From NCBI GenBank assembly GCA_008632985.1, contig QPGO01000083.1:161075-225074 (forward strand): a DNA stretch of 64,000 nucleotides, written 5' to 3'. Under the pieces are notes generated by a model. It was not told the origin of the DNA. It did not search any database and saw only the letters and a program-made list of their open reading frames with translations. Shown here piece after piece: positions 12,765 to 63,425 of the stretch. Both the position numbers and the translations under genes were made by a program. Origin of the DNA: Psammoneis japonica (lineage: Eukaryota). The stretch's first letter is position 1. Each line of letters starts with the position of its first letter.

Positions 12765-13015
12765 AAATGCTGGTGATGCAAGCTGGCAGCAGATCTCATC
12801 TGCGAACGGACTGAAAATCTCTACCGTGCACTGACCATCGTACGAAGATTTGTCAATCTGCCACATTCAACTTTGACACCAAAAAACGACGCACCACCAT
12901 GGCACATCAAACTTGGAAGCCTGCCATTCTCTGCAGCTGTGACGATCTGATGCTCGAAACTTGGTGGCATCGTGGAACACTCTCTGTGGTGCTTGTTGAA
13001 TTTTTCTGGTTTGAA

Positions 13016-16539: not shown

Positions 16540-16636
16540 TGCTTTGGCAACAGCATGCCTCACATTTCTGGAGAATGGCGTGCGTAAATTGCCTGGAGCA
16601 TGTTTCATGAAGCTCACCACAACCAGTCAAGGTCAA

Positions 16637-34000: not shown

Positions 34001-34190
34001 ACACATCATTGGCTGTGAGCCACCTCCAATGGCTTTTGGGGGAGCAGCTTGTGGTGGGAATCGTCGTGAGCCACTTCAAACAGCTCATGGCTGGAAATGA
34101 CTTGTGTTTTGTGTCTTCAAACAAGTGAACAATCGGTTTCCAAATGAGACAATTTCCAAACAAATTCTGGCACGTCCAACAGATGACACC
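22070..34190. other. 12-kb block of heavily decayed repeats, depleted of TpA and CpG
   Basis: TG/CA-dominated sequence with only scattered TA. Dense overlapping Cys/His/Gln-rich, almost Tyr-free ORFs. No element could be confidently classified. Confidence 0.7.
23355..23457 (+). repeat. 44-bp direct duplication (period 59)
   Basis: TGTAAAATCTAAACAAAAGGAAGAAAGGCAGAGTGTGAAGAAAC versus TGTAAAATCCAAACAAAAGGAAGAAAGACAGAGCACAAAGAAAC. Confidence 0.85.
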
Positions 34191-34646
34191 TCATAGACGG
34201 AAGAAAGCACACATGCCCATGTCTGATTTGCGCGCCCGCCACGTCGTCGGTTACAATCTTTGACTCATTCGACTGTTATGATCTTGCGCCGCTCACAAAA
34301 TAAATCGCACCTCTTTGTCTTTGCCGCCTCTCTTCCCGCGCATTGAACGGCATCGTCACTTGTGCGTTATAAGATTGAAATTGCATCCGGTGAATCCTAT
34401 GCCGTTGCTTGGGAGCGAGAGAAACAACTTGATCACAAGTATTAGAGACCTCCAATATCATAGTAGTTACGGAACAAAGAGGTGAGGGGAGAGATCTCGT
34501 TTTCGTCTGAAATCTGCGACCCCGAAACATGCTTTTCCGCGCTTCTTTATTTTTTTGCCACGACCGTTTTTGTTCGTATATAAACGCTTTTACCTAATCC
34601 TGAGTCCTGCATCTTGTTGTGCCCTTTAGCTCATTACATATTACAA

Positions 34647-37028: not shown

Positions 37029-37759
37029 GTATGTGTCAACATGCGCGGCTGGATCGAGACTCGATACTCGCGGATTGGCTAAGCACCTTGGGTTTGCTTA
37101 CATGATTTTACTGTATGCGGGCGTCTCAAATCCGGTTACAATCGTGCGTAGTTTCGGACTTCTAAGGAATGAATCGACTCAACTATTTGAATTACGAACC
37201 AAGTAGAGTCTCTCCCTCGCTCGCTGCAAATTTTTGTCATTGTATTGCATCCTTTTACTAGCGAGGGGTTCCAACCAATGTTTTCCCGGATTGTTCGCTA
37301 TTTCTCTCGTTCGCATCGTCTAACTTTTGCGTTTCGGCAAAAATTTCCGACATCTTCGACACAGATGTGGCCTGCCTCGCTGTACCAGAATCTGCTGCCT
37401 CCGCACCAAGCTTTCCACTGCCCACATCCATCAGTTGCCTGTGAGTGCTAACGACGGTGCCAGACGTTGTCAAAATGTTGACAGCATCTTCCATTTCATC
37501 CCCACCATAAATAATTTCTAGTACTTCCGCTTCGCCGTTCATAATGCCACTGCAAGTGAAGTAAACACAGCGAAGAACTTAGCTAATGTGGAATGACAAT
37601 AAGCAATAGAGGAGTTGACAGCGCTGGCGACTGTTGCCAGGAAGGTCCTTCCAAGAACTCGTGGAAGCCAAGCACACCTTGAAGTGCCTACGCGTGCACC
37701 CTCCAAGCCGTTCCATCCCAGGGCTGAACGGCCACGCCCCATGTTCTTGGGAATTGTTG

Positions 37760-40215
37760 AGACTGCACCGAGGCCATGTTGGATTTTGCTGTCCCGCTGC
37801 AAGGAGCATCACATCACAACCCAGTGACACTGCATGGACCAGTCACCGCGGCATCCAGTCACGACCTTCCAACGGCCATCATCACACACTGTCGGGCACA
37901 AGGAGCTGCAGACAAAGGCCAGATTCAAGTCACTCATTGTGTGTCAACCCATCCCATGACTGTGGTGGGACCGGCTCAGCCCTGGGACAACAAAACCTGG
38001 ACCATTGCAAGAGATCTCACGCGTGGACAGTTTGCGCTCATGGAATTTGGGGACAATGCTTTTGCCCTCACCAATCAGGGACCATGAGTTCCCACACTCA
38101 CGACACGCCACAAATGCACATCACAGCAGCACCCAATGGGCTCCACCCTCACATTTCAGCAAACTCACCCAAAGCAGTTAAAGTGAGAACCTGAAATGTC
38201 ATGTGTGTGTGTCTCAAGTTTGTCCGTCGCCTCCTGCCAACACCGCTGCAACCCAAGGATGCATGCACACAGACTCACAGGGCAGCCATTGCCACATGTG
38301 TGCAGATTCATGGGGCTGCCATTGCCGCCAATGAAGTCACTGCTGTCACCCCTTTGTTGGGTTGTTTGCATGTTGCTTGCTGTGCCACACAGAACTCCCA
38401 ACTTCAGTCAGCCATGGCACAAGCTTGGCTTGCCATGGCTTGGCCTCCAAACAAAGCACTTGCTCATTTCATTGATTTTAAAGTAGAGCACAACATCCCA
38501 GGTTGCAGCGGGCATGTGCAGTTCACTGGCCAGCAGTTCCAGCCCATCGTCATAGTGATCGAAGAACTCATGGTGGAGCAGCATCAACAATGGCAAGATG
38601 CCAACAAAAGAGCATGCACCTCAACACACGGAAAAGCACTCAGCAAGTTCTGGGGGGATTTTGGAGTCACCAAGATTCTGTGCTTGTGTCAAGTTTACAA
38701 CAAAGCCACCCTGCCACCATTCTGGGCAGCACTCACCTCAGCACAGAAGACCAGCTGACTGTTGGTCATTCAGAATGCAATTGATGAGCAGCGACAAGTC
38801 TTTGCCATGCACTTTGACTCACCCGTCACCGTCAACCTTATCACCAAGCTTGTGCAGCTGGATTTTTCTGGTTGCAATCAAGAAAAACCAACCCAGGGGA
38901 GCCAAGAGCTCTTTTCTGCATTGGCCAACTAGCCAGCGCAGCCACAACCCCCAGTTGTGGAGAGTTCAAAATGGCGGTGCATCCACCCTACAAATTGTGG
39001 ACAGGATGTTGCTGCTGCCATTTGCAATGACAAACCTGGTGAGCATGTAAAAATGACACCGTTGTTTTGCATTGTGAAGGACTCAGTTACCCTGCACATT
39101 GTCACAGCGGCAGAGGTGATTGGAGTTGACTCCTCAGGAGCCAACAACATCCCAGGCATTGTTCACTTTGCACCTGCAAGCACCAATGAGCCCCCATCAC
39201 CGTCGCCAACAAGCCATGGATGTGTGCTGAGCCAGACACCAATCCAAATGCAAGCACATCAAGCTTTTGCAAATGACGCAGCTGACATGGTTGAAAAAGG
39301 CTTCTGGACCGTTGTCCCATGCTCCAAAGTGCAAGACACCCCAGGCCTTGGGTTGAGCCCGACTGGCATGGTTCTGCAACATGGCTGCCAATCGTGCCCC
39401 ATCATGGGCTGCACCTTTTGTGGTCTCAACCCTGCAACACAACCAAACACCACCATGGAATCCATGCAATTTGGCCAAGCCTTCAATTGCGTGTCATGCC
39501 ATGTCCTCCTTGCCAACCCCAGCAAAGGCAAAGTCTGCCTCATGAAGACAGACATCTCACTGACAGATGCCACAGGATGCATCTGGCTCTGGATGGAGCA
39601 CCTGTCCTGGGGGTGATTTTCCTTGGCTTGCCAGGAGAGCCAACAATTTTGACATTGTGTGCAATGCCCAAGCACTGCCACATCCGCTTGAACCTTTGCT
39701 TCAGAGCAGACCCAAAAAGCACCAGGCAACAACAACACCTGATCCGACACACTCTGTCCCCATCCCGGCCCATCCCAACCCGCACCTGCAGCACCGCCAT
39801 CGCCGCCATCTCCTGCACATGTGGACACACATGTTGACAACTTTGTTGGAGCATTGCAGGGTTCATGCCGGGCATGCCAAAACATCCATCGCATCATCTC
39901 ACACGTGCTGGGGCTGGATGACATCTTTCTGACACTCAACTCTGCTGACCCGGCCACCCGCAAGGAGCCTGCATCATCAGTTGAAAAGCTCTGCCAGTGT
40001 GATGCCACATGGTCTGCGCACAGAAAGAAGTGCTGGGATGGATCATTGACACTCAATCAATGACCATCAGACTCACGCTGCACCGGCGTGAGTGCCTTCT
40101 TGCTGCGCTGCACAAGGATTTTCCCCTTGCACTCAAAGACGTGCCACCGCCACTGACTTCCACAAGCTCTTGGGTGAATTGCGCTCTCTCGGCATTGCAG
40201 TTCCCGGGCTCACGC
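37760..40215 (+). mobile_element. Decayed, 3'-truncated Ngaro/DIRS-type retrotransposon (gag-like + RT)
   Basis: DMVEKGFWTVVPC..LSPTGMV..MQFGQAF..LLANP..VCLMKTDI, then HVDNFVG (YVDD site, 39830-39841), RKEPAS..KL..DATWS, LGWIIDT, LLGELRSL.IAVPG. These match the pattern of diatom tyrosine-recombinase retroelement RTs. No recombinase gene seen. Confidence 0.75.
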
Positions 40216-40568
40216 AGTTGACACTCAGAGCTTCAAAAGAACCTCCAGCACACCAACATGAGGCCGCCCGGCGAAGAAGAAGATGGCGACGGTGCGACCG
40301 TGCGCACAAGCCCGTCTTTTCCTACATGCAGTAATCCCTAGCCCTTTCGCAATGCGGAGGTCTGCCAATCCACGACTCTATTCTTCGTATTCCAGCTATT
40401 CGCGTCGTCGCTAAATACTACTCAACAACCCAAACATATAGCACAGGGCGTATCTTTTAATGCTCTTAACAGCTACGACTAGCGTAGAGTTGAAGGAAAG
40501 AATGTGCCACTGAATCGCCTGGCTCTGCTTGTTGCACCAACCTGCGGTGGTTTTCATCCACAGCTTCA

Positions 40569-41992
40569 TCATAGCTCACAAATATCCAACGCGTCATCTG
40601 AATCTCCATCCTTTGCTACCGTGTATTGGGCCTTAACTTTTCTCGGATTGGGCCAGAATTCTTCATCGTAATAGGGGCCCATCACTTCCACCACCTCCTC
40701 ACCATCACCTTCGTTGTACTCATCGTACCGTTCACGGTGTAGCTTTCGCATCATTTCAACGTGCTTCTTGTATGCTTTCTCGTATTGTTGGTGGGCCTGC
40801 TCACCCAAGACAGGAGAATGTTTAATAATGTGGCCACAAAAGGACAACATGTCCTGGGTGGTGTGATTGCGCGTGATTGGGCGCCCGCACAAGGTGAGAT
40901 CCTCAAACACACAACGAGGGAATAGCAAAGGAGACGGATCGTATTTACCTGGTGATAGCGTTCTGGAAAGGAAAGATGGGCATTCCAGACTTCGTCGATC
41001 GCCTTCGACGGGGAATACTTCTCTGAGTTCCAATCCTTGGCCTCCGTTTTTATCGCTAGAAACATTTGATAGTTTTTGACAGCACGTTGGGCCCACTCCA
41101 TTCCGAGGTCTGGGAACCGGGCAGCCATCAAGTTGGTCAATGCACCCCAATCTGGTTCCGTGTCTCCACCCATGCGAATATTCATCGCAGTCGGGGAATT
41201 CTCCGAAAGAACAGTGTATAACTTTATCTTGTAGTCTGCTCTCCATGTAAGTTTATGAGAAAGCTCAAATTGACTATCCGTGTCGCAATCATGGAAGGAC
41301 ATGGCAGAGGCGTTAGCTTGGCCGCGAGCATAGACAACCAACACCCCACCAGCATTCTCCTCCCAATCATTGAGACGTCTAACACATGCTCTTCGTTCGA
41401 GAGGATCACGAGGAAATGCCTCGAACGGGAAGTATTCTCGGACTTCCCCCGCATCTAAGTCCTCCGGGTACTTCTCGCGTCGGGGTCGATCAGATCTGAC
41501 AAGCGACGCGCACACATTGTTCCAAACAGTGTTTACTTGGAGGTGGTAGTCCAACTTGAAGTTGTCAATGGGAGAATTGGCATCTGGCCTGTTGAACGAG
41601 GCGGTTAACTCCTCAGCATAGTCTCCCTTTTTGACAACCGCAACGTCGCGGATCGAATCAGAAATGCCATCGTCCCGTTGTCCGTCATTCATAACGTCGT
41701 GATTGGGATCAGCGAAGAGGACTCTGTTAAAAGTTGCCTTTCCCTTCACATTGGTAGTGCCTGCTGCCAACGTAAAGCGCCCCGTAATTGGATCTTGGAG
41801 CATGGGAACTTGCAATGTGCCCACCATACCGCCCTCTGGAATCAGTTGCGTTTTGCAGCTCCGAAACTTGAACTCTACGGTGACGCGGTTAAGATCACCT
41901 TGAGCCCGTCTCACACGTTTTATAGCGGGTCCATCTCTTTTCCCCGTCCGTTTAGCTCCGGCTGAGCTAACAGTCTCGGGAAGTCTTGACAT
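40569..41992 (-). CDS. Protein with C-terminal GRDP/DUF1399-like domain, 2 exons
   Basis: AVKNYQMFL..SPSKAIDEVWNAHL..PERY. In-frame intron 40854-40948, then DMLSFCGHIIKHSP..YDEEFWP. Confidence 0.72.
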
Positions 41993-42147
41993 GGCCGCGT
42001 TTTTCAATGCGGTGTTAGTCGTTAGTCGCTTCTTATCAACAGTAGCCTATGGTTGTTGTAATGGCGGTATGGGTGTCGCCACTTGGCATTCGCAGAACAA
42101 AGGCGGGTGAAAGGCACGACGATTTGATTTTCATTGACCACTTAGTG

Positions 42148-42323
42148 TGAAGAATTTACCATGTGGTTTTATCGGAAATAGTGTTTAGAACTGTATATTT
42201 GGCGATTCGGAACGGGAAGACTCCATCCGAGATCTACTCACAATCTTAGAAATAGTAGCACGATGTTACAACGATTTTCTATAACTTTACTCTCTAGCAA
42301 GCGACTACGGGGTAATTTATTCA
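42148..42323 (+). repeat. 5' LTR (retains 18 TpA)
   Basis: Ungapped match to 48888-49063 with 21 substitutions. Confidence 0.95.
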
Positions 42324-42989
42324 CTTTATCAGAGCCATCGACGTATGTAACGACAGTGGTAATGATTGCTACGCTTGCGAACGATTCGCAATACGACCAT
42401 TCGTTCCAACTTGTCAGAGATGACATGAAAACATCGACGAACGTGAGACGACGTTCGTGCTTGACGAGTATGTAACTCCCAGGGCTAGTTCGGCCGTAAT
42501 ACTTATGGATAACAAAAGTATCGACTGTCCTGATGTGTTTTATGAGCGTAAATACGCGGACACAGAGCGCAAAATTGGATCTGGGACGCCATTTCCATAC
42601 CGAAGTTATCTCGGAGGCAACTGCGTGGCGATTTGAAATCGCCGAGTGAGCATATAAACGCGATATAATTGATAAATTATATATATTTAACCTCACTATT
42701 GGTCAATGTAGACCAGGGAACGAGCACGTTGCCGATGATCGGCACATGCATTATACGATCACGTAGATTGTAACAGTAGCCGTTGTATCTGAATTCCCAT
42801 ACAGATATTTTAATCCACGTCGATTAAATATAAACAGCTATCTGTAGACACGTTGATCGTAGTTATAACGATTACTTTTATGCAACGGTGGAAAAGCGAT
42901 ACGAAGTTCGCGCACCTCACTCACTTTCCGTACACAACCACACAAAAGTTTGCGAGAACATCAAATTACACCGTTCGTAACCACAAACC

Positions 42990-44479
42990 ATGGCGGCAGT
43001 CGCTGCAGCGATGCGTGCTGCCCACACCCGACTGGGGTTTACCACACAAGCAGCCGCGGCTTTAACGATGAGCAGGGAATCGACTCAGTCGATGAACTGC
43101 GTCACCTCGACGACCATGAGGTCGAGACCTCATGCAAGGTCATTCGTCGCCCAGGAGGGGCTGCGGCAGGGAATCCGCCAGCAGGAGGGAACGCCCAACC
43201 CAACCTAGGGATGTCAGTCCCGTTGTGAGCCGAGACGAATCTCAAGCTCGCCGCGCATGCGGCTCGTCACTGCGAGCGCATGTCGCGGACGTTGCGAGCT
43301 GTCGACATCAACCTTGCACCAGTGCGAGGCTGCCGACACTTCCGTGCCACAGAGGAGACCTGCGCACTGCCCAAAACGCTGCCAACGATCATCGAGAAGG
43401 ACTGGCCGAAGACGATCGAGTCGATTCAGGAGCATCTGCGGGCATGCCGAGGCGAGACGAAAACACCGCCAGCGCACGTCATCCGTGACAACCAGGAAGT
43501 GACTCCCAAGGCCGATGATCCAGCCACCAACTGCGACAATCCCATCGAGGAGATGATCGCAAGGGCCCCGCATTTTGCTGCTGGGAACGACCCTCAACCT
43601 GCCGAAACGTTCACGGCCGACAACATCAAAGTGTGGGAAATCATTGCAGGCATTGCGCGAGAACACACGAGTTGGGCCTGTGTCAAGTCGGCCCAGAGGA
43701 GTCAGGATGGCAGGACAGCCCACCTGAACCTGTGCAACCATTTCTTGGGCCCCAACAATGCAGATGACATGGCAAACGCCGCTGAAAAGCGCCTTGCCAG
43801 TTTGTCCTGCCACGGGGAAAAGCGCAATTGGAACTTCGAGCGCTGCGTGTGAGTTCATGTCGAACAACACGCGATTCTGGATGGCTTGACCCAGCATGGT
43901 TATGCCGGGATCGACGCACAATCCAAGGTCCACCATCTCCTTGCAAGTGTCAAGGACTCGTCGCTTGACTCAGTCAAGACGCAGATCATGTCTAGCGCAA
44001 CGTTGCGCAACGACTTTGATGCTTGCGTCATTCTGTTCAAGGACTTCATCAAGCAGTCCAAGCCGGACAATGACGCGAAACGTCTTCGTGTTGCGGCTCT
44101 CAAGGCTGGGAAGCGTAGACGAGAGGCTGTCATTCATGCCGATGACGTGGAGGACAAGTGCCACCCTCCCAAAGAGCACAGCAAGCTGTCTCCCCAGGCT
44201 GGGAAGAAGCTCAAGTCGCTGCGCAACACACATGGTGACACGAAAACCGGCAAGGCCACGGCGGCCGGTGACGCCAAACAGATCAAGGCTCTGACCAAGA
44301 CGGTCACTGCCATTTCAGCTCAGACAGACGATTCATCCAATGAAGGCAGCAGTGAATCTGAAACTGAAGAGCCAATGAAGCCTCCGGCCACCAAGCAGGA
44401 TCGAAACCGCGGCAACAAGGCGTTGATTCGCAAGGCTGCTCGCAAGCACATCCCCAAGGCTGGACATTGCAAGGAGTGA
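42990..44479 (+). pseudogene. gag: Copia gag, disrupted
   Basis: MAAVAAAMRAA..RLGFT, a frameshift near 43063, then EQGIDSVDEL..VIRRPGG and GEKRNWNFE. In-frame TGA at 43226 and 43850, compatible with CGA>TGA. Confidence 0.8.
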
Positions 44480-44485
44480 CTGCCA

Positions 44486-47400
44486 ATGGTGGCTGTCATG
44501 CGGCTCAGTCCGCTGCAGACTTTGCGCTCAACCCAGACAAAGGTCAAGGGACCATCGAACGAAGAGTCTCGCACGGACATCGACAGTCATGCAGACACAA
44601 GCGCACCAGGCAAGCACGCTTTAATTTTACTTGACCATGATGGGCCAGCAGACACAGAAGGGTGCGACCCGACATCAGGTGCCAGCAAGTGTCTGTGCAC
44701 CGTCAGTGGAGCTGTTGCTTGTGCCGATCCTCAGACGGGCCACCCACACGTCTTGGTTGTCCACCAAGCAGTCCATGTGCCACACCTTGAGCATGGCTTG
44801 CTGTGTCCAATGCACTTGTGGCTGAATGACGTGGAACTTTCATTAAAACCGAAGTTTCCACTGACAAAGCCCAATGACAAGGAACATGCGATTGTCGCCA
44901 AGGATGCAAATGGCACTTCATTGACCACACCTTTGGACCTGGAGGGAGTCTCGAGCTGCTTCCCCTCCAGTGTCCCGACTTTATCTCAATGCGAGGATGC
45001 GGCCCAAGAAGGGAGCGTGTGTGAACTCATGCATGAGTCCCCGGAATGGGACCCCACCTCCTCTGATTTCCACGCTGGGGAAGATGCCATGACCGATGCT
45101 CTTGGCAGAGTGCATGAGACCGGGGACGACACGCGTCCTCATGTGCACATTATGAGCACGAAGCTCTCACGCACTGCAGCTCAAGAGACCTCAGACTCTC
45201 TGGGGAATCAGCCGTTGCGTGACATTTCCAATGCATGCGATGACCGTTTGCTGCTGGCATCCATGAAACTGTCTTCGCTCAAGACAACGAAGCGCGGCTT
45301 CAAGGTTGACGCTGAACGTTTGGCCGAGAATTGGTCCATCAGCCTCAAGGATGCTCAGAACACTCTCAAGGTTACGACACAGTGTGGAGCTAGGACGGTT
45401 CTACATCCTGCGCTGTCGCGACGTTTCCGCACCAATGATCGACAACTGCAATGCAGGCGTGTCTCAAAGGAGATGCACTCCAATGCCATGTTCTCCTCTG
45501 TCAAGTCTAGGCGAGGGAATGTGTGCGCGCAAGTGTTCGCAATGTCCAATGGATGGGCACGCGCTCATCCATTGAAGTCAAAACGTCCAGCGCACGAGGC
45601 GTTGTCATTGCTCTTCGTGCAAGAAGGCGTGCCCCATGCTGTGCCAGTGGACGGGGCGAGAGAAGAGACAATGGGGCAGTTTAGCAAGAAAGCCAGGGAG
45701 GCTGATTGCCATGTGAGACAAACTGAACCATGTGCCCCTTGGTCCAACACCGCAGAGGGCACAATTCGTGAACTCAAGCGAGGTGTTGGGCGCAAGATGG
45801 TTAAGTCACAGGCCCCAAAATGCCCATGGGATGATTGCCTGGAACTGGAAGGCCTTGTTGGGTCTAACACCGCTCGAAGCATCTATGAGCTTGACGGTGA
45901 AGTCCCGGAAACTGTTGTGTCCGGTCAGACGGCTGACATCTCGCACACATGCGAACTAGGCTGGTACGACTGGGTCATGTTTCGAGACACGGCAGTCTCA
46001 TTTCCCGAGGACAAGGAAGTCCTGGGGCGACATCTAGGTCCGAGCAGGGATGTGGGCCCAGCTGTGATGGCCAAGACACTCAAGGAGAACGGACAGGCAG
46101 TCCATCGCTCATCTTGTGGGGCACTGACTCCCGAGGAGCAGGGACACAAGACGCACATGGCGTCACGTGAAAAGTTTGATAGGTTGACAGAGGTCAAGCT
46201 AGGCCCTGGTGTGACCGTCGGGGACTTTGACGACCCTGACGCAATTACTCCCACCTTCGAACCGTACGAGGATGACGAGGAACAGGATGTTCCGTCTAGT
46301 GCCTCCGATGAGGATGACATGCCAGACGAAGCCTGCGATCAACATGTCAACGCAGAAGCACTGCCACCTCACGGGGACATGGAACAGACTGGGACAGTGA
46401 AGCGACGTAAGCTCAATCCGGACGGCACACCTGCCGGACGGGCTAACCCAAACCCAATGCTTGACACTCGTGTGCATGAGGTCGAGTTTCCTGATGGACA
46501 GGAAGCAGAATTCGCGGCGAATGTCATCGCTGAGAACATGTTCGCACAGTGTGACAATGAAGGCAACCAGCACTTGTTGCTAGATGCAATTGTTGATCAC
46601 AAGACTGACGGGCATGCTGTCAAGAAGGAGGACGCCTTCATCCAAGACAGTCGAGGACGTCGATCCATGCGCAAGACTGCCAAAGGCTGGCATCTTTGCG
46701 TGCAATGGAAAGACGGACCCACATCTTGGGAACGACTGTCCGACTTGAAGGAATCTAACCCAGTAGAAACAGCAGAGTATGCCAGGGCTAGATCTATAGA
46801 GGATGAACCCGCATTCGCATGGTGGGTTCCCTTTACCTTCAAGAAACGTCAGCAAATCACAGCCGCTGTGAACAAGCGATGTCACAAGCGCACTCACAAG
46901 TGCGGGATGCGCATTCCCAAGACCCATGAAGAGGCAGTCGAGATCGACAAGGCTAACGGCGACCGCTTGTGGCAGGACACCGTAGACAAGGAGATCGAAG
47001 TCGTTACGAAAGCCTTTGAGATTATCGACGATGACGATGAGCTTGTGGGTTACCAGCATGTCCGCTGCCACTTGGCCTTTGATGTCAAACTACAAGACTT
47101 CAAGCGGAAGGCTCGCCATGTCGCAGGGGGACATGCCACTGAACCTCCAGCGACCCTGACGTACGCAAGCGTCGTCTCCCGTGAAAGTGTGAGGATTGCC
47201 TTCGCTCTGGCGGCTCTAAATGACTTGGAGGTTAAGGCTGCGGACATTGAGAATGCCCATGTCACCGCACCTAACAGCGAGAAGATCACTGCAACTCTAG
47301 GACCTGAGTTTGGACCCAATGCTGGGAAGCGTGCCACAGTTGAGCGCGCATTGTACGGATTGAAGAGTGCAGGTGCATCCTTCAGGAACCACTTGGCATC

Positions 47401-48619
47401 GTGCATGCGTCATCTTGGTTGGGAACCATGTCTGGCTGATCCCGATGTGTGGATGAAGGCACAAGTTCGACCAGATGATGGGTTCCGTTGCTGTGCCTGT
47501 GCACTGTTGCATGTCGACGACGTGCTTGTGGCACACCACGACGCTACGTCAGCGCTCAAGGAATTGGACCGATGCTTCAAGATGAAACCCGGATCCATCG
47601 GTGACCCTGAGATGCACCTCGGGGCGAAGATCCGTGAAGTGCAAATGCCGAACGGTGTCTGCGCGTGGAGCATGAGCTCTGGCAAGTGCATCCAACAGGC
47701 CATTGGAAATGTCGAGGGGCACCCAGATGAGTCCACTCCCGGATGGACGTCACCACGCAAGGCAACGGCTCCGTTTCCACGCGACTGTCGACCGGAGCTC
47801 GACATTGCGCCAAAGCTCGATGCAGAGCGGGCTCGATTTTACCAGTCGCAGGTGGGAGTCCTGCACTGGACAGTGGAACTCGGACGAGTCGACCTCACAG
47901 CAGAGGTGTCCAAGCTTGCCTCATTCCTTGCCATGCCTGGAGAAGGTCATCTCGGCGCAGTCCCACATGTGCATGGGTGCCTTGAGAATGGACACAATGC
48001 CACGTCAGCGTTCGATCCGACGTGCCCGGATGTCGACATGTCTGACTTTAAGGAATGTGATTGGCAGGCGTTCTGCAGGGACGTTAAGGAGGCAATTCCG
48101 CCGAATGCACCAGAAGCTCTGGGCAAGGACATTGATCTGCGTCTGTTTGTAGATTCAGATCATGCGAATGACAAAGTGACGAGACGCTCTCGCACTGGTC
48201 ATTTCATCCATTTGAACATGGCATTGATTGCCTGGTTCTCCAAGCACCAGAGCACCATCGAGACTTCAGTCTTTGGTGCTGAGTTTGTGGCTGTGAAGCA
48301 GGGCATGGAAGCTTTGCGAGGCCCAAGGTGCAAACTCAGGATGATGGGAGTCCCGCTCAGCGGACCATCACACATTTGTGGGGACAACATGTCAGTTGTC
48401 CACAACACCCAAAGCCCAGAGTTGACTTTGAAGAAGAAGTCTAACTCCACATGCCACCATGCCGTTGGGGAGTCGGCAGCCATGGGTGAGTCCCTTGCAG
48501 GACACATTAGATCGGAATGCAATCCGGCTGATCTTGCGACTAAGATCATGTGCGGTGGCATCAAGCGAGATGGCCTCGTTGGTGTGATGCTACACGACAC
48601 ATGTGATGATCAAGGATGA
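44486..48619 (+). pseudogene. pol: Copia pol (protease-integrase-RT-RNase H): open frame but missense-riddled
   Basis: IDSHADT, VDGAREE, KARHVAGGH, ADIENAH, ALYGLKSAG, LLHVDD, FVDSDHA..RRSRTG, GDN, NPADLATK. Many expected Tyr read as Cys or His. Confidence 0.93.
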
Positions 48620-48887
48620 ATGAAGAATGAACAGTCGCTTCCTCGACTGACTCTTTTTCTGTTTCTCCTTGCATCCAGCAAGCATGTCAGCTTGCACTGG
48701 CGGGCATGTTGGCTCGCATTCCTTCCATGTGCTTCTTGGAAGGGCACAGTTTTAGACTGGCACCCTTTCCCAATTTGGGTTTCAGCAGGTTGTCAGGGTT
48801 TCCTTGTCACTTGGTTGTGGCTAAATGCTGTCGGAGTGCAAATTGGATCAAGCTGATTCAGTGTCTGCTTCAACGACTTGAGGGGAC

Positions 48888-49063
48888 TGAAGAATTTGCC
48901 ATGTGGTTTTGTCGGAAATGGTGTTTGGAACTGTGTGTTTGGCGATTCGGAACGGGAAGACTCCATCCAAGATCTGCTCACAATCTTGGAAATGGTGGCA
49001 CGATGTTGCAACGATTTTCTGTGACTTTGCTCTCTGGCAAGCGACTGCGGGGCAACCCATTCA
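48888..49063 (+). repeat. 3' LTR (0 TpA)
   Basis: Follows the PPT, ends TTCA and is followed by the AGTG TSD. Confidence 0.95.
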
Positions 49064-49203
49064 AGTGGTTGGTGATTGCAGACTTTTTCGTGTCGGTCCG
49101 GCAGTCGGGCAGTCGGGCAGTCGGGCAGTTTGTCCGAATTTGAAAGTGTGTCCCTTGCATGGATTTTGAAAGGGCATGGGTTGTTCAGCACAGATGAATT
49201 CTT

Positions 49204-52200
49204 GGCAATTTTTTCATGTTCGTGGCCGGTTAAAGGAAAAGAGAAAAAAAGAGGGGAATCAACCGTTGAACACACACACACAATTGACCATGCAACCATG
49301 GCCAGAGTTGCACTGGCTTCTTTTGATCCAGGGTGGTTGCTGCAGGTGCAAAGAGTGGGGCACATTGCAGTTGCAGGAGGGTGACAATGTGGCACTGAGT
49401 GTGTGCCACCAGGCTGAGCAGCCCAGCTTGGGTGTCAGCCAAGCCCTGCCAGGCCAGCTGCCCTGGCTCCAGCTGCTCTTCCCAGTGTGCGTGAGTTGTT
49501 GAAGGAGCACCACATTGACTCAAAGGCTGTGTTTTAAGTGGGGCAGAGAGAAAAAACTGTTGTCTTGGCTGGTGCTTGCTTCAGACCCTGCATCATGAGC
49601 GCAAGCTCCTCTTGAGAAATGAGCGAGAATGGCCATTTTTGGCGCCTCTCTTTGGTTGCCCACTTGGCATTGCCAACAAATCTTGAACCAAACTTCACTC
49701 ACAGTTTCTTCACTCTTCAACCACAAAACCAGGTTCAACTTTTTGTTGGCTTCTTTGTGGCTGGGGTCACTGTTGCAGGCACAAATGGTGGGCACATGCC
49801 ATGTGGCTGCTTGGCAACAAGAGTGTGATGCCAAGCATGTGCTGCACACCAAGGAGCCAAGCAGCCCAGCCCAGCTTTGAATGGAGCCCCAGGACAGCAG
49901 CCAACTCTGGGTGATCTCAGCATGGTGTGCTTGTTTGGGCTGTGCTGCACTCACCCCACAGTGCTCTGTGTTGTGGTGGCTTGTTGTGCAAGCCGTGTGG
50001 CTGAAGAGCCAGCAGCCAGCCAGGGCCCATCTTGCAAAGGCCACAAATGTTGACCCTGTGCAAAGCTGTGTGAGGGGGCAGGCACAGGGATTTGCAATGA
50101 TGGCTTCACAGCCATTGGCCCCAAGTTGGCATTTGATTGGGATCCAGTGCTGAGGGGCTGTGAAGTGTGGGGTTGGGAGCCCAGCCAGCTCGCACTCTCT
50201 TTGTTGTCACAAAGTGCTGCCACAGCTGTCTTTGCATTGCAGCCAGCCAGGTGCGGTTGACCCCAAGTTGGCACTTGATTTGGAGTGACTGCCAAGGAGC
50301 TGTGAAGTGTGGGGTTGGGCAGTCCAGCCAGCTCACACTCTTTGCTGACAGCAGAAAGCACTGTCGCAGCTGTCCTTGCGCACACATGGCCAGAGCAGCC
50401 TTGGCACATCCTGCTGACAAAACTGACAAAGACAGCGACTCTTGTGGTTGAGCCACTCAGCACGCAGGAGATCTGGGCACACTCCTGGGAAGTCAAACAG
50501 GAAGGAGGGCTGAGCATTGCCGCCAGTGCCAGGCACAAATGTCAGCTTGTCTTGAGAGAGATTCGAGCCCACACAGCCCCGCGTTGGGCATCTTTGCTGG
50601 CAAAATGGAAAGCATTCTTGAGCACATTCTGGCATGTGGGCAGCACTGTCACCAAGAGGGCTGCTCTGCAGAGGAAGAGGGAAATGGGCAACAACATTTT
50701 GCAAGAACTGTTTTGTGTCAATGGTCGGGTGGGATGTGGCAGCATCATCTGGACTTTGATGGAGCATTTGGCGGACAAAGCTTGAGCACAGAGAGTTGTC
50801 CACTCAAGCTCCACAAGTGGCACTTTCCAAAGGTGACACCACACATGGGCCATGTGTTCATGCATCAACATGCCTCAAGCTGCAAGTCACACAAAAAAAC
50901 CACCACCAACCTTTCAGCCAACCACCATCATGGACAGAACAGGTCAAGAGGTTCAAAACAAGAGCGATTCATTGACTCTCTTCTGGTTCCATGCATTCAA
51001 GAGCTTCTTGTCCTTCTCAAATGTTTGTTGTGCATTGTTGTCTCTTTTAATTCAAGTGCAAAGAGGAGTCACTTTTCTTGTTTCCATCTCTTGAGATGTT
51101 GTTGGTTGTTGAGTGATGCAACTTTTGTTGTCACATTTTTGGAAATGTTGGCAAACCCGATCACTGCTTGATTGTCAACCCATTTGCTGTTTTAAGTCTC
51201 CATGGCATAAAATGCCATAATTCCAGAGCCCTCAATTGTTTCATCAAACGCAGTGCTTTGAAACACGTCCAACATCAACTCGACTCAGTTGAAATCCCAG
51301 TTTGTGGGCGATGAAAAATCACGAATGTCAAACAAATGGCTACTTTCGACATCAAGATCCCCGAGTTCAATCCAAATGTGACGGTACGCCTCACAGCTTA
51401 TGGCCATGACACATACAAGCATGCCTCATTGTCATCGCGTCGAGCACTCGTATCGAAAATGCCGATAGATCAAAGTTCAGGAAAAGGATGGAATACAAAT
51501 TCATTTGTGAATTCATTAGTGGCATTGGCGTAATGATATTTACGGCAGAAGCAATCTAAAATCCTTATTCATCATTGACATTTCTGTATTGCTCAGATTT
51601 TGAAATCTGACCACTACCGTTAAGCATTTAGCTGTCTTTGTATGGAAGTGGAAATGACACTTAACGATTTACACTAACCATTTAGCTTTCTTTGTGTCGA
51701 AGTGGAAATGACACTTAACGATTTACACTAACCATTTAGCTTACTTTGGCTCGAAGTCAGACAAAGAGATTGGGCTATGGGCTTGTCGTTAACCAGCCAC
51801 GAGCATGAAATCTTTACCGGTGGCGGCAATTTTTTCATGTTCGTGGCCGGTTAAAGGAAAAGAGAAAAAAAGAGGGGAATCAACCGTTGAACACACACAC
51901 ACAATTGACCATGCAACCATGGCCAGAGTTGCACTGGCTTCTTTTGATCCAGGGTGGTTGCTGCAGGTGCAAAGAGTGGGGCACATTGCAGTTGCAGGAG
52001 GGTGACAATGTGGCACTGAGTGTGTGCCACCAGGCTGAGCAGCCCAGCTTGGGTGTCAGCCAAGCCCTGCCAGGCCAGCTGCCCTGGCTCCAGCTGCTCT
52101 TCCCAGTGTGCGTGAGTTGTTGAAGGAGCACCACATTGACTCAAAGGCTGTGTTTTAAGTGGGGCAGAGAGAAAAAACTGTTGTCTTGGCTGGTGCTTGC

Positions 52201-55200
52201 TTCAGACCCTGCATCATGAGCGCAAGCTCCTCTTGAGAAATGAGCGAGAATGGCCATTTTTGGCGCCTCTCTTTGGTTGCCCACTTGGCATTGCCAACAA
52301 ATCTTGAACCAAACTTCACTCACAGTTTCTTCACTCTTCAACCACAAAACCAGGTTCAACTTTTTGTTGGCTTCTTTGTGGCTGGGGTCACTGTTGCAGG
52401 CACAAATGGTGGGCACATGCCATGTGGCTGCTTGGCAACAAGAGTGTGATGCCAAGCATGTGCTGCACACCAAGGAGCCAAGCAGCCCAGCCCAGCTTTG
52501 AATGGAGCCCCAGGACAGCAGCCAACTCTGGGTGATCTCAGCATGGTGTGCTTGTTTGGGCTGTGCTGCACTCACCCCACAGTGCTCTGTGTTGTGGTGG
52601 CTTGTTGTGCAAGCCGTGTGGCTGAAGAGCCAGCAGCCAGCCAGGGCCCATCTTGCAAAGGCCACAAATGTTGACCCTGTGCAAAGCTGTGTGAGGGGCA
52701 GGCACAGGGATTTGCAATGATGGCTTCACAGCCATTGGCCCCAAGTTGGCATTTGATTGGGATCCAGTGCTGAGGGGCTGTGAAGTGTGGGGTTGGGAGC
52801 CCAGCCAGCTCGCACTCTCTTTGTTGTCACAAAGTGCTGCCACAGCTGTCTTTGCATTGCAGCCAGCCAGGTGCGGTTGACCCCAAGTTGGCACTTGATT
52901 TGGAGTGACTGCCAAGGAGCTGTGAAGTGTGGGGTTGGGCAGTCCAGCCAGCTCACACTCTTTGCTGACAGCAGAAAGCACTGTCGCAGCTGTCCTTGCG
53001 CACACATGGCCAGAGCAGCCTTGGCACATCCTGCTGACAAAACTGACAAAGACAGCGACTCTTGTGGTTGAGCCACTCAGCACGCAGGAGATCTGGGCAC
53101 ACTCCTGGGAAGTCAAACAGGAAGGAGGGCTGAGCATTGCCGCCAGTGCCAGGCACAAATGTCAGCTTGTCTTGAGAGAGATTCGAGCCCACACAGCCCC
53201 GCGTTGGGCATCTTTGCTGGCAAAATGGAAAGCATTCTTGAGCACATTCTGGCATGTGGGCAGCACTGTCACCAAGAGGGCTGCTCTGCAGAGGAAGAGG
53301 GAAATGGGCAACAACATTTTGCAAGAACTGTTTTGTGTCAATGGTCGGGTGGGATGTGGCAGCATCATCTGGACTTTGATGGAGCATTTGGCGGACAAAG
53401 CTTGAGCACAGAGAGTTGTCCACTCAAGCTCCACAAGTGGCACTTTCCAAAGGTGACACCACACATGGGCCATGTGTTCATGCATCAACATGCCTCAAGC
53501 TGCAAGTCACACAAAAAAACCACCACCAACCTTTCAGCCAACCACCATCATGGACAGAACAGGTCAAGAGGTTCAAAACAAGAGCGATTCATTGACTCTC
53601 TTCTGGTTCCATGCATTCAAGAGCTTCTTGTCCTTCTCAAATGTTTGTTGTGCATTGTTGTCTCTTTTAATTCAAGTGCAAAGAGGAGTCACTTTTCTTG
53701 TTTCCATCTCTTGAGATGTTGTGGTTGTTGAGTGATGCAACTTTTGTTGTCACATTTTTGGAAATGTTGGCAAACCCGATCACTGCTTGATTGTCAACCC
53801 ATTTGCTGTTTTAAGTCTCCATGGCATAAAATGCCATAATTCCAGAGCCCTCAATTGTTTCATCAAACGCAGTGCTTTGAAACACGTCCAACATCAACTC
53901 GACTCAGTTGAAATCCCAGTTTGTGGGCGATGAAAAATCACGAATGTCAAACAAATGGCTACTTTCGACATCAAGATCCCCGAGTTCAATCCAAATGTGA
54001 CGGTACGCCTCACAGCTTATGGCCATGACACATACAAGCATGCCTCATTGTCATCGCGTCGAGCACTCGTATCGAAAATGCCGATAGATCAAAGTTCAGG
54101 AAAAGGATGGAATACAAATTCATTTGTGAATTCATTAGTGGCATTGGCGTAATGATATTTACGGCAGAAGCAATCTAAAATCCTTATTCATCATTGACAT
54201 TTCTGTATTGCTCAGATTTTGAAATCTGACCACTACCGTTAAGCATTTAGCTGTCTTTGTATGGAAGTGGAAATGACACTTAACGATTTACACTAACCAT
54301 TTAGCTTTCTTTGTGTCGAAGTGGAAATGACACTTAACGATTTACACTAACCATTTAGCTTACTTTGGCTCGAAGTCAGACAAAGAGATTGGGCTATGGG
54401 CTTGTGGTTAACCAGCCACGAGCATGAAATCTTTACCGGTGGCGGCAATTTTTTCATGTTCGTGGCCGGTTAAAGGAAAAGAGAAAAAAAGAGGGGAATC
54501 AACCGTTGAACACACACACACAATTGACCATGCAACCATGGCCAGAGTTGCACTGGCTTCTTTTGATCCAGGGTGGTTGCTGCAGGTGCAAAGAGTGGGG
54601 CACATTGCAGTTGCAGGAGGGTGACAATGTGGCACTGAGTGTGTGCCACCAGGCTGAGCAGCCCAGCTTGGGTGTCAGCCAAGCCCTGCCAGGCCAGCTG
54701 CCCTGGCTCCAGCTGCTCTTCCCAGTGTGCGTGAGTTATTGAAGGAGCACCACATTGACTCAAAGGCTGTGTTTTAAGTGGGGCAGAGAGAAAAAACTGT
54801 TGTCTTGGCTGGTGCTTGCTTCAGACCCTGCATCATGAGCGCAAGCTCCTCTTGAGAAATGAGCGAGAATGGCCATTTTTGGCGCCTCTCTTTGGTTGCC
54901 CACTTGGCATTGCCAACAAATCTTGAACCAAACTTCACTCACAGTTTCTTCACTCTTCAACCACAAAACCAGGTTCAACTTTTTGTTGGCTTCTTTGTGG
55001 CTGGGGTCACTGTTGCAGGCACAAATGGTGGGCACATGCCATGTGGCTGCTTGGCAACAAGAGTGTGATGCCAAGCATGTGCTGCACACCAAGGAGCCAA
55101 GCAGCCCAGCCCAGCTTTGAATGGAGCCCCAGGACAGCAGCCAACTCTGGGTGATCTCAGCATGGTCAATTGTGTGTGTGTGTTCAACGGTTGATTCCCC

Positions 55201-57854: not shown

Positions 57855-58819
57855 GAATTCTTCGGATTCTTGGAATTGTCATTGAGGACATGAGAGGTTG
57901 TGGGGACATCCTAAAAAATCGATAAATTCCCTGCGACGGGTGCGTGGCACGGTTTTTCAGGAGAGCTCGAAAGTTCTGAAAAATTGGGATTGCCGGCGTG
58001 GCATGTTCAAAAATGCATTCAGTTGCACACAAAGACAATTTGTCGTGAATTCTACACGAAAAAGTCACACTGGGGAAAACACATCAAACAACAAGTGAGT
58101 TTGTGTGATGCGCTGTCATGGCGATAAATTGGAAAAAAGAGTGTCCGAGCACCTCGCCACAGCCCCAAAAATGGCATGAGACATCAAACACAACGGTCAT
58201 CCGCGTCACTGGTGCGGCGGCCATGCTGCTCAGCCGCCACAATGCCAGCCCGGCGGCAGGGCCCTGTGCACGTACAGGCAATGCAGCATGCAACAGCACA
58301 CACCCACACCCACAAAGAAAGACAAGTGGTCAATGCTCCCCGCAGGCCTGGTTCAGGATTTTCTGCTGTGCGAGAAACGCACACTGGCAGTGCGACACGC
58401 GCCTCATTCAATCATTGCCAAAAAGCGGCGACATGGTGGTGGTGCATTGTTGCAGCGATGGCAATGACAGTGCACTCCCCAGCATTCGGGAGTGAAGCAA
58501 GAGGTCTGCACATGTCATGTGGACAATTTTGTGTTGTGCAGATGTCTGCACAATCAGTGCGTTGCATGCATTTCTGCGCAACATCTCTTGCACTACAAAT
58601 TCGGAAACAATTGCGCGATTTCTCGCCCAAAGCAATGATTGGAGCTTTGCGCAGATGTCCATTGAAGCAAAAGAGGGGAAGGAAAGACACCAGCAAACAC
58701 CACAGCCTTGAACGGATCGAGCGCCAATGGCGGCGTTCTTCGCTGCAGCTCGTCGCCGCCTGCCGAGGCTGCAGCAGCTGCTGCAATTTTGAACAAAGAG
58801 CAACACATGCCTGCACTGC

Positions 58820-63390: not shown

Positions 63391-63425
<35 letters not shown>

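Follow-up and report, generated by a model that had tools for sequence, protein, structure and literature searches.

In the 64-kb window, i.e. the whole stretch of Psammoneis japonica DNA that was analysed, a conserved host gene (87 homologues at E<=0.001, 13 at E<=1e-30) lies next to an LTR retrotransposon, the 5' LTR of which begins 156 bp ahead of the first Met codon of this divergently oriented gene, on its upstream side (Table 1). Judged by its sequence, the element is a Ty1/copia LTR retrotransposon of the diatom CoDi-like kind: it possesses direct LTRs with TG..CA ends, a 4-nt duplication (AGTG) and a polypurine tract, and its polyprotein matches diatom copia polyproteins with 54-62% identity (best 62%) at 99-100% coverage of the query region. 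A Pfam search of the polyprotein returned RVT_2 at 41.4 bits (cut-off 31.6). With AGTG at both flanks and a purine tract before the 3' LTR, the LTR pair looks like a single insertion, and the PBS-like stretch after the 5' LTR is presumably the PBS of the copia element. The evidence base comprises this window and contigs of one run (X1).

Table 1: Position of the retrotransposon features, the host gene and the TpA-poor blocks in the window.
Feature	Position	Strand	Basis or remark
TpA-free, CpG-poor block	1853..4387	.	dinucleotide maps
TpA-depleted block, CpG mostly intact	11115..17296	.	three long consecutive ORFs, 12815-16134, + strand
12-kb block without TpA and CpG	22073..34193	.	dinucleotide maps
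TpA-free block	37690..40322	.	ends ~250 bp before host gene region
Conserved host gene, TpA normal (rho 0.55-0.6)	40751..42046	-	5' end faces spared 5' LTR
Left target-site duplication AGTG	42144..42147	+	identical 4 nt after 3' LTR, 49064-49067
5' LTR, unmutated state, 18 TpA and 9 CpG	42148..42323	+	LTR alignment
PBS-like stretch, leader, gag start	42324..43063	+	TpA-rich (rho ~1.0), CpG-rich (rho ~1.65)
gag-pol reading frame, Ty1/copia	42869..48619	+	three in-frame TGA: 43226, 43850, 44477
Mutated body of element	43064..48887	+	rho(TpA) 0.20, 58 TpA left
Reverse transcriptase domain, Pfam RVT_2	47087..47635	+	E = 1.6e-10, residues 870-1052
RT catalytic motif HVDD; homologues YVDD (TAY>CAY)	47510..47521	+	homologue consensus
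Polypurine tract directly before 3' LTR	48880..48886	+	position and composition only
3' LTR, fully converted, 0 TpA	48888..49063	+	16 + strand hits, 2 - strand hits, one CpG lost
Right target-site duplication AGTG	49064..49067	+	matches 42144..42147
TpA-free repeat array	49068..63828	.	continuous with 3' LTR; 2.6-kb tandem unit and inverted copy

Results

Divergence of the LTR pair

The two LTRs align without gaps over 176 columns and differ at 21 sites. Every one of the 18 TpA of the 5' LTR is replaced in the 3' LTR, 16 by TG (A>G) and two by CA (T>C, LTR positions 166 and 171); the three remaining differences are two T>C adjoining the last hit (TTTA>CCCA) and one G>A at CpG, exactly as counted in an earlier reading of the sequence alone (hereafter the sequence-only reading). 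From the 5' to the 3' LTR, counts increase for TG (7 to 23) and CA (8 to 11), and GC content increases as well (37.5% to 48.3%). Differences were found at 18/36 TpA nucleotides versus 3/140 others (Fisher p = 5e-12), and by class of site the changes amount to 18/18 for TpA, 1/9 for CpG and 2/122 for other sites. Comparison of the first with the last of these fractions would put the TpA rate, per adenine, at no less than about 40-60 times. Each of the 21 differences can be assigned to the 3' LTR. Since reverse transcription leaves both LTRs identical, they arose post-integration, and the assumption of the sequence-only reading that mutation followed reverse transcription was borne out by LTRs that differ despite their common target-site duplication.

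Direction of change

Polarity was retraced by means of conserved Tyr columns, defined as Tyr in >=80% of 60 diatom homologues. Among 25 such columns the element retains Tyr in six, while 13 are now Cys and six are now His; conserved His (15/15) and conserved Cys (8/8) are unchanged in the element, and the result held on a repeat with 119 homologues as reference. The Tyr share of the element polyprotein is 0.58% versus 3.88 +/- 0.41% in 120 homologues. At the nucleotide level, TpA density in the mutated body is 12.6 per kb, compared with a mean of 43.4 and a minimum of 28.1 in 41 reference ORFs, against which the mass balance reads -30.8 per kb for TpA and +30.9 per kb for TpG and CpA together. 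The rho(TpA) of 0.20 in the element body compares with 0.48-0.91 in 80 related loci; that the signature was found in 0/80 related copia loci from metagenomes is a point against the explanation proposed below. In-frame stops in the body are TGA only, with neither TAA nor TAG among them.

Further evidence stems from sites with more than one derived state. One LTR site displays three states: the 5' LTR has TA, the 3' LTR has CA, and a further genomic copy has TG. In two other repeat pairs, 13/24 and 8/13 double differences are adjacent TG-versus-CA doubles, and four further doubles of this kind were detected against other genomic copies. Polarity from TA to TG/CA, which the sequence-only reading had assumed, is therefore supported by the loss of Tyr to Cys and His, by the three-state site and by the doubles; the condition which it had named as refuting, a family state of TG/CA, was put to four tests and the polarity stood.

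Sequence context, strand and type of change

At conserved columns 45 A:T>G:C replacements were inferred, 40 of them at TpA (five of the 40 with an alternative ancestral codon), and in only two was the A>G change preceded by A. Changes of Tyr codons are transitions throughout (19/19, transversions none), and in the LTRs A>G and T>C make up 20/21 differences. A context-specific and saturating A:T>G:C mutator, as proposed earlier, agrees with the complete loss of LTR TpA and the transitions at conserved Tyr. Among surviving TpA, a purine follows the A on both strands in 50% and 45% of cases, the reference figure being 18.5% (chi-square p = 8e-10 and 1e-17), and ATAT and ATAC are almost gone; the order of preference is T-A-T, then T-A-C, then T-A-R.

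Both strands are targeted, with TpG and CpA as products. The split is uneven in the LTR (16:2, binomial p = 0.0013) and not significant at Tyr codons (13:6), CA-type hits, in which the antisense adenine changed, accounting for 6/19 Tyr codons and 14/40 replacements in the ORF. In the mass balance CA gained 19.7 and TG 11.2 per kb, which is inside the reference spread, and no significant result came from a runs test of the 58 hits that were polarised (p = 0.28). Conversion of TpA to TpG or CpA cannot create stop codons, so that genes are disabled via missense changes, e.g. Tyr to Cys or His, as in the catalytic motif (YVDD to HVDD).

Boundary inside the element

The switch from a TpA-rich to a TpA-poor state is located at ~42980-43060 in a 100-bp map, ~0.9 kb into the element, and is completed within ~100 bp. 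There are 72 TpA in 42148-43000, and the first CpG-decay difference, among those listed, is at 43117; the leader and gag start escaped both decay processes. The element family is multi-copy over its full length (summed depth 400-1300 versus 62 for the unique flank), including the 0.9 kb which escaped, so that the label "repeat-targeted" of the sequence-only reading would go beyond the data. This suggests that position or chromatin, not repetition, decides. Diatom repeats are described as CpG-methylated in blocks of up to 30 kb, with repeats just upstream of genes hypomethylated (PMC5124317). Alternatively, the 5' kilobase could owe its TpA-rich state to gene conversion at a later time, with an unmutated copy as donor.

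Extent across the window and relation to CpG decay

In total the window holds 1053 TpA versus 4055 expected from base composition. Rho(TpA) is below 0.2 in 75/127 windows of 500 bp (59% of the window), rho falls to ~0.03 at saturation, TpA-free runs reach 1.6 kb, and 13 TpA-free gaps exceed 800 bp, where random placement gives 0.001 on average; host gene regions are TpA-normal (rho ~0.5). The TpA-free state of the 3' LTR extends unbroken into the unrelated repeats that flank it (48823-51047). The array downstream of the element, with a summed contig depth of 4800-6200 (unique flank: 62), is broken up by islands that are AT-rich and normal in TpA (~51048-51852, 53668-54471 and 55221-56031). A tandem duplicate with 99.9% identity has two differences, one of which is TA against TG. 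None of 118 ORFs from the blocks at 1.8-4.4, 11-17, 22-34 and 37.7-40.3 kb had a Pfam match above cut-off; the Pfam search of the 12-kb block returned nothing at cut-off, and the three consecutive ORFs at 12815-16134 gave zero Pfam matches and a single weak homologue.

None of 37 TpA-normal windows is CpG-poor, whereas 13/75 TpA-poor windows have rho(CpG) >= 0.7. TpA loss outpaces CpG decay in this window: it is the faster process, since in the LTR all TpA and only one of nine CpG were changed, and since 13 TpA-poor windows remain CpG-normal and the reverse never occurs. The process is confined to repeat blocks also bearing methyl-CpG-type decay, a selfish nature being established for the copia element and the repeats at 49-58 kb only.

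Discussion

Proposed mechanism

With direction, dinucleotide context, post-integration timing, domain-like extent and context order taken from the observations above, the locus is probably best explained by a DNA-level TpA mutator of the kind reported from Bigelowiella natans, acting after insertion by adenine deamination in silenced chromatin. The element would have inserted upstream of the diatom gene with two identical, TpA-rich LTRs; thereafter the mutator would have turned TpA into TpG where the adenine of the + strand was hit, or into CpA where that of the - strand was hit, covering the element from ~0.9 kb inside it to its 3' end and then the neighbouring repeats, and the LTR and leader adjoining the 5' end of the gene would have escaped. 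DNA adenine deamination is our best guess for the chemistry, i.e. adenine in DNA would be deaminated to hypoxanthine by a putative polynucleotide deaminase (ADAT2/TadA-like), which may be recruited to silenced, methylated chromatin and not by sequence repetition as such.

Alternative explanations

Error-prone or aberrant repair in methylated chromatin, by Pol-eta at WA or by a glycosylase-initiated futile base-excision cycle, could convert TpA in place of a dedicated deaminase and has a small chance of being correct. TpA loss and CpG decay do occupy common domains with a common boundary, as such a process would have it. The WA motif of Pol-eta comprises A after A or T, and the enzyme generates transversions as well as transitions; ApA should thus have been hit too, but A>G after A is just 2/45, and only transitions were found at Tyr codons, with 20/21 LTR differences A>G or T>C. 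Hence the Pol-eta-like repair put forward in the sequence-only reading fits poorly. Zero TpA over 1.6 kb is also hard to obtain from a side reaction of repair. Aberrant TDG-initiated repair is reported to give context-specific T:A>C:G changes (PMC4041421), but the published effect acts at TpG/CpA with CpG as product and is therefore different.

A second possibility, which we regard as quite unlikely, is that the element was TpA-free at insertion, as a trans-mobilised copy of a hypermutated master, and that gene conversion from a TpA-rich copy afterwards replaced its 5' LTR and leader; the difference between the LTRs would then stem from conversion and not from mutation in situ. The abruptness of the switch (~100 bp) would suit this, as would the many genomic copies having a TpA-rich 5' kilobase (summed depth 500-900, few differences). 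However, the TpA-free state does not stop at the 3' LTR but runs on into unrelated repeats, an element with an HVDD reverse transcriptase is improbable as a master copy, and the same mutator would still be required. Moreover, other copies differ in their derived state (TG against CA) at the same sites, so that mutation takes place in situ and separately in each copy.

A-to-I editing of the retrotransposon RNA by an ADAR-/ADAT-like enzyme before reverse transcription is very unlikely. The upstream-U preference of ADAR, cited in the discussion of a preprint (10.64898/2026.01.13.699255), and the sense excess in the LTR, with the trend at Tyr codons, are in its favour. The 21 LTR differences are nevertheless post-integration, antisense hits are common, and the blocks cross element borders and extend through non-coding repeats. 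ADARs prefer a 3' G, and T-A-G is the opposite, among the slowest contexts. As sole cause RNA editing is contradicted by the LTR differences and the antisense hits, though a contribution could remain.

A sequencing or assembly artefact, in which a modified base at heterochromatic TpA is systematically miscalled, is more improbable still. Read support, named as a check in the sequence-only reading, is partial: contigs of run X1 span 30/30 bins, but the unique-flank contig enters the 5' LTR for only 30 nt, and X1, the sole run containing the region, may come from the very sample that was assembled. Contigs at k-mer depths from 62 to 2400 nonetheless give TpA-free stretches, two of these contigs (records 4 and 8) with 0 differences, and among the 40 contig-versus-assembly entries listed (238 more exist) none is a difference in either LTR. 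Strand-dependent miscalls predict conflicting TG/CA at a site instead of states that are stable and specific to a copy; the signal comes together with CpG decay, with TGA stops in frame and with ordinary divergence, and the same signature was obtained from Illumina reads in B. natans.

Finally, classical RIP-like C>T change at CpA/TpG with the 5' LTR as derived copy, which might be entertained because two sequences alone cannot polarise changes and because rho(TpA) of the 5' kilobase (~1.0) exceeds the gene background (~0.5), has next to no chance and is refuted by conserved Tyr turning into Cys or His and never the reverse, by TG-versus-CA doubles, which require a TA ancestor, and by the rho(TpA) of relatives, and is further disfavoured because the ancestral LTR would carry 0 TpA in 176 nt and by in-frame stops that are all TGA.

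Comparison with known systems

For a DNA-level TpA mutator, one earlier report of such hypermutation was found, in the unrelated alga B. natans, so that the statement in the sequence-only reading that no such system had been described is out of date. In that 2026 preprint (Mettrop et al., 10.64898/2026.01.13.699255) a signature of TpA>TpG/CpA only was measured directly in mutation-accumulation lines: 230/231 mutations in two viral regions were A>G or T>C, all at TpA, the rate reached ~1000 times background in living lines, with activity in some lines only, and an ADAT2-like deaminase was proposed. Both cases have in common that A>G and T>C occur almost exclusively, at TpA, with the strand deciding between TpG and CpA, and that foreign or selfish DNA only is affected, in TpA-poor, CpA- and TpG-rich clusters, the rest being ordinary. 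They differ in host (a diatom, Stramenopiles, versus a chlorarachniophyte, Rhizaria), in targets (an LTR retrotransposon and unclassified repeats here, giant-virus and virophage inserts there), in degree (rho ~0.03 and 1.6-kb TpA-free runs versus rho 0.45 in a viral insert) and in evidence, which is a fossil record here and a measured rate there. As the host is a diatom with the same signature, it represents a second lineage of this just-described kind, and it adds the co-location with CpG decay, the boundary inside one element and the order T-A-T > T-A-C > T-A-R. The process is not general to diatoms, given that a mutation-accumulation study of Phaeodactylum reports an ordinary, GC>AT-biased spectrum (PMC6604790).

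Ascomycete RIP likewise consists of dense, dinucleotide-specific transitions that act post-integration and regionally on repeated or selfish DNA and disable transposons. Direction and chemistry are opposite, however: RIP changes C:G to T:A at CpA and creates TpA (RIPCAL, PMC2621366), thereby lowering GC and making stops, whereas A:T>G:C change here destroys TpA, raises GC and makes none. Repetition alone furthermore falls short as an explanation of the targets here, given that the 5' kilobase is just as repeated and was spared. APOBEC/AID enzymes share the context-specific transition hypermutation of retroelements, and the 16 same-strand hits in the 3' LTR resemble deaminase tracts; APOBEC is described as converting C to U, mostly on cDNA during reverse transcription (PMC4866542), while here adenine is targeted, post-integration and on both strands. 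Methyl-CpG decay resembles the process in its products TpG and CpA, its palindromic YpR start and its location in the same blocks, and differs in substrate dinucleotide and base.

A wider reading, which we offer tentatively and would not yet rate as likely, is an old SAR-wide defence common to diatoms and chlorarachniophytes, in which a DNA adenine deaminase directed to silenced chromatin would turn T-A-Y into T-G-Y on both strands alike, would outpace methyl-CpG decay and, as a mirror image of RIP, would create no stops, with TpA-free blocks as its saturated end state and the order T-A-T > T-A-C > T-A-R as its footprint.

Implications

Mutated elements evade Pfam and repeat annotation (0/118 ORFs in the other blocks matched) and mimic coding sequence, since TAA and TAG stops vanish, and dating by LTR divergence is invalid for them. 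Leads for finding the enzyme are the boundary inside the element at the 5' end of a gene, the nesting of CpG decay in TpA loss and the extended motif; a context-defined DNA adenine deaminase would also be of interest for base editing. A:T>G:C hypermutation directed at selfish DNA would join RIP and APOBEC editing as a new class of defence, for which the 2026 preprint on B. natans is so far the sole published evidence. The saturated signature on ordinary retrotransposons of a diatom suggests a wide distribution of the system across the SAR supergroup, where it may strongly shape repeat composition by raising GC, by removing Tyr codons and by leaving dead elements with long ORFs free of stops.

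Divergence of the LTR pair

The two LTRs of the Ty1/copia element could be aligned over 176 columns without a gap and differed at 21 sites, namely 16 A>G changes, every one preceded by T, two T>C changes with A as the next base, two further T>C changes adjoining the last TpA change (TTTA>CCCA), and one G>A change inside a CpG. The 5′ LTR contains 18 TpA and the 3′ LTR none, and the 3′ copy has 23 TG against 7 in the 5′ copy, and 11 CA against 8. Overall, 18 of 36 TpA nucleotides differ as against 3 of 140 other nucleotides (p = 5e-12). The pair stems from a single insertion: the LTRs end in TG..CA, AGTG is found on both flanks, a purine tract lies just before the 3′ LTR, and between the LTRs runs a polyprotein frame of Ty1/copia type, which includes an RVT_2 domain (41.4 bits; cut-off 31.6) and shares 54-62% identity with copia polyproteins of diatoms. 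Within the window these two LTR copies are the only ones, and a scan of metagenome contigs with the 30-nt invariant LTR core for outgroup copies gave no match. One contig from the sequencing run X1, with a depth of 24.9 compared with 62 for the flank, joins 42147 to 49066 with two extra letters; it may hint at an empty-site allele, its shorter side measuring 21 letters, which is below the criterion applied, and if such an allele is real, the insertion would be polymorphic and young.

Direction of change

A comparison of two LTRs cannot show which copy changed, and repeat-induced point mutation (RIP) read backwards gives the same picture. Five tests on sequence data agree in marking the TpA-free state as the derived one. 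In 25 alignment columns with Tyr (codon TAY) in at least 80% of 60 homologues, the element has 6 Tyr, 13 Cys (TGY) and 6 His (CAY), and none of the 15 conserved His or the 8 conserved Cys is lost; the shift from Tyr to Cys or His was reproduced with 119 homologues as reference. The catalytic motif of the reverse transcriptase reads HVDD as compared with YVDD in the homologue consensus, and Tyr makes up 0.58% of the element's protein versus 3.88 ± 0.41% in 120 homologues. Among 103 replaced conserved columns, 40 correspond to one TpA>TpG/CpA step (five of these with an alternative ancestral codon), 5 to A:T>G:C in another context, 17 to C>T or G>A, 28 to transversions and 13 to multiple steps.

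At the nucleotide level, the element carries 12.6 TpA per kb, compared with 43.4 in 41 near-full-length metagenome reference ORFs (minimum 28.1), and against these ORFs its gain in TpG and CpA (30.9 per kb) matches its loss of TpA (30.8 per kb). The rho(TpA) of the element body is 0.20, versus 0.48-0.91 in 80 of 80 related loci, where TpA-free runs never exceed 322 bp. In two other repeat pairs of the window, of 2.7 kb and 0.5 kb, adjacent TG-versus-CA mismatches predominate, making up 13 of 24 and 8 of 13 double differences, respectively; they favour a TA ancestor, from which one step per copy is enough, whereas two coordinated steps would be required from TG or CA. At one LTR site TA stands in the 5′ LTR, CA in the 3′ LTR and TG in contigs from other genomic copies. 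The opposite polarity, as in RIP, demands an ancestral LTR of 176 nt without any TpA. As the tests agree, all 21 LTR differences, the lost CpG included, can be assigned to the 3′ LTR. Our recount coincides with the sequence-only reading in the 21 differences among 176 sites and the loss of all 18 TpA, and the polarity proposed there (TpA ancestral, TG/CA derived) is borne out by Tyr codons, reference ORFs and repeat doubles.

Distribution within the element and across the window

The first 0.9 kb of the element, comprising LTR, leader and the start of gag with 72 TpA, is untouched, and depletion sets in abruptly thereafter at varying degree (see table). The sequence-only reading had called the process repeat-targeted, which requires amendment: the element family is multi-copy over its full length (summed contig depth 400-1300 versus 62 on the unique flank), the spared 5′ part included, so that repetition by itself cannot account for the choice of the part that changed. 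What escaped is the portion closest to the 5′ end of a divergently oriented, genuine gene with 87 homologues, and 156 bp separate the first Met codon of this gene from the LTR.

In the whole window 1053 TpA were observed, while 4055 were expected from base composition. There are 13 TpA-free gaps of more than 800 bp, and the longest measures about 1630 bp. When as many TpA were placed at random in 2000 trials, gaps above 800 bp averaged 0.001 in number, and the largest gap of all was 978 bp. In 75 of 127 windows of 500 bp rho(TpA) was below 0.2, and rho of TpG and CpA was roughly 1.5-2.5 in these. The blocks are separated by ordinary genes, whose rho(TpA) is about 0.5 and which code for a carnitine acyltransferase, a GT49 glycosyltransferase, a YaaA-family protein and an FG-GAP protein, besides the gene at 40751-42046. 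The carnitine acyltransferase has its best matches among diatom proteins (at most 69% identity), the closest named one being fragilariophycean; by its sequence the host is a diatom and not Bigelowiella. For 118 ORFs of the other TpA-free blocks no Pfam match above the cut-off was obtained, four matches being weak and sub-threshold. The longest of three successive ORFs upstream has one weak homologue in the protein searches (P0242, 29% identity), and this region may represent an unclassified second element that was hit recently. A tandem unit with 38 remaining TpA follows the element, and only two substitutions, one of them TA versus TG, were found in the alignment of its copies. Outside its AT-rich islands this unit is TpA-free; the islands contain 54-bp internal repeats of their own and may have been inserted later or represent a class of sequence that was spared.

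Features of the element and of the TpA-depleted blocks in the window
Feature	Coordinates	Strand	Observation
Three successive long ORFs	12815-16134	+	250, 298 and 488 aa; TpA-depleted, CpG near-normal, without Pfam family
488-aa ORF	14671-16134	+	
Ty1/copia element	42148-49063	+	
5′ LTR	42148-42323		
Spared part	42148-43000		compared with host genes CpG-rich (rho 1.5-1.65) and TpG/CpA-poor (rho ~0.9-1.1)
Onset of TpA loss	between ~42980 and 43060		
Nearly TpA-free	43.2-44.6 kb		
Partial depletion	44.6-48.1 kb		
Element body	43200-48887		58 surviving TpA
Open frame	44480-48619		1379 codons
3′ LTR	48888-49063		
Through 3′ LTR into unrelated repeats	48.8 kb to 51047		just two isolated TpA
GGCAGTC repeat	49099-49128		7-nt unit, four times, just downstream of 3′ LTR
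Tandem unit of 2.6 kb	49204-52547 vs 51825-55166		99.88% identity, ~2.3 units
AT-rich islands in tandem unit	~51048-51852, 53668-54471, 55221-56031		TpA-normal, GC 0.41-0.42
Inverted copy of 2.6-kb unit	57863-55160		91% identical
Segment scanned for Atlas scores	58128-59288		no Atlas score of at least 0.9
Assembly gap	63109-63390		282 N, within last TpA-free block

Loss of CpG follows the same geography as loss of TpA within the element. When differences from other genomic copies were classified for the 40 best-supported positions (238 further ones lie outside this count), 15 had TpG or CpA in this copy and CpG in the others, beginning at 43117, 8 formed four TG-versus-CA doubles, and 4 retained a TpA here that was converted in other copies. 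Across the window, loss of CpG falls within the area of TpA loss, rho(CpG) being below 0.5 in none of 37 TpA-normal windows and at least 0.7 in 13 of 75 TpA-poor ones. In the LTR, all 18 TpA changed compared with one of 9 CpG. TpA conversion is hence faster than CpG decay in the same domains. For all 18 TpA to be hit at p ≥ 0.05, at least 1.88 changes per TpA must be expected, and 2 of 122 LTR sites outside TpA and CpG had changed; from both we infer that the rate per adenine is at least about 40-60 times as high.

Context and strand of the changes

The changes are transitions only and affect both strands. A purine follows A on both strands (CTAG, CTAA/TTAG, TTAA) in 50% of the TpA surviving in the copia body and in 45% of those surviving in the other blocks, compared with 18.5% of the TpA in 80 reference loci, and among survivors ATAT occurs at 0-0.07 times and ATAC/GTAT at 0.11-0.22 times the reference frequency (p = 8e-10 in the copia body, 1e-17 in the other blocks). 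These contexts give a target order of T-A-T, then T-A-C, then T-A-R, which back-mutations among the survivors may blur and would not produce. An A stood 3′ of the changed adenine in one of 58 cases, a count biased by Tyr codons; the survivor analysis is more reliable on this point.

With regard to strand, 16 of 18 TpA changes in the 3′ LTR are on the plus strand (p = 0.0013) and 5 of 14 tie-free sites changed on the strand disfavoured by the context order, so that a local same-strand tract is present. Strand counts free of bias come from two sources only, the LTR with 16:2 and the Tyr codons with 13:6 (not significant); neither the Tyr codons nor mass balance established a global strand bias, and a runs test for strand coordination on 58 polarised changes was not significant (p = 0.28). 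A sense-strand count of 42:16 carries no weight as evidence: it is inflated by a detection bias, since a T>C change in the third position of a codon leaves the amino acid the same. A TpA>TpG/CpA process cannot generate a stop codon, and dead elements hence retain very long open frames, as in the table; the in-frame stops of the element body are all TGA, in contexts which fit CpG decay.

Possible mechanism

The process acts on DNA after integration, is a TpA-specific A:T>G:C change and is confined to blocks also decaying at CpG. As rival explanations, RIP polarity, an artefact, RNA editing, repair-based mutagenesis and gene conversion at the 5′ end of the element were weighed and rated as less likely. 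The adenine may be enzymatically deaminated to hypoxanthine, a step which we regard as about equally likely to be right or wrong; hypoxanthine pairs as G, so that only transitions would arise, on either strand. tRNA adenosine deaminases target A34, directly after the universal U33, from which a built-in preference for T-A would follow. The agent would be recruited by silent, methylated chromatin, as suggested by the boundary common with CpG decay and by published diatom methylomes: there, CpG methylation covers repeats in blocks as long as 30 kb, and repeats that immediately precede genes show hypomethylation (PMC5124317).

Comparison with known systems

In the literature covered, most subscription-journal papers being outside its scope, no report of TpA hypermutation in diatoms or other stramenopiles was found; mutation accumulation in Phaeodactylum shows an ordinary GC>AT bias, transposable elements and hotspots being unmentioned in the available parts of the paper (PMC6604790). 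In mutation-accumulation lines of Bigelowiella natans, according to the accessible text of a preprint (10.64898/2026.01.13.699255), 231 of 302 nuclear mutations fell in integrated giant-virus and virophage regions, and 230 of these 231 were A>G or T>C, all at TpA, with a TpA mutation rate about 1000 times background and activity in some lines only. The same text describes TpA-poor CDS enriched for reverse-transcriptase and DDE-endonuclease domains and proposes an ADAT2-like protein as candidate enzyme (10.64898/2026.01.13.699255). The signature is identical, so the diatom case belongs to this just-described kind, and the sequence-only reading, otherwise supported except for the term repeat-targeted, cannot be upheld in its claim that such a system was not described. 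This assessment covers one 64-kb window, with read support from run X1, which is possibly not independent of the assembly, and with most other blocks lacking a family match.

In contrast to B. natans, the diatom belongs to another supergroup lineage, the process acts on retrotransposons and other repeats, and saturation is reached in the window; structural detail is added here which is absent from the accessible preprint text. The homologous protein P0075 is a copia polyprotein from a different family and an unrelated source; of its 23 conserved Tyr positions, 7 are changed, here too exclusively to Cys (six) or His (one), and its composition is 2.27% Tyr and 6.6% Cys plus His. P0075 may be a partly hypermutated element of another organism, and as such it is a lead towards the process in additional organisms. 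The signature of TpA loss was absent from the other 119 homologues and from 80 related loci.
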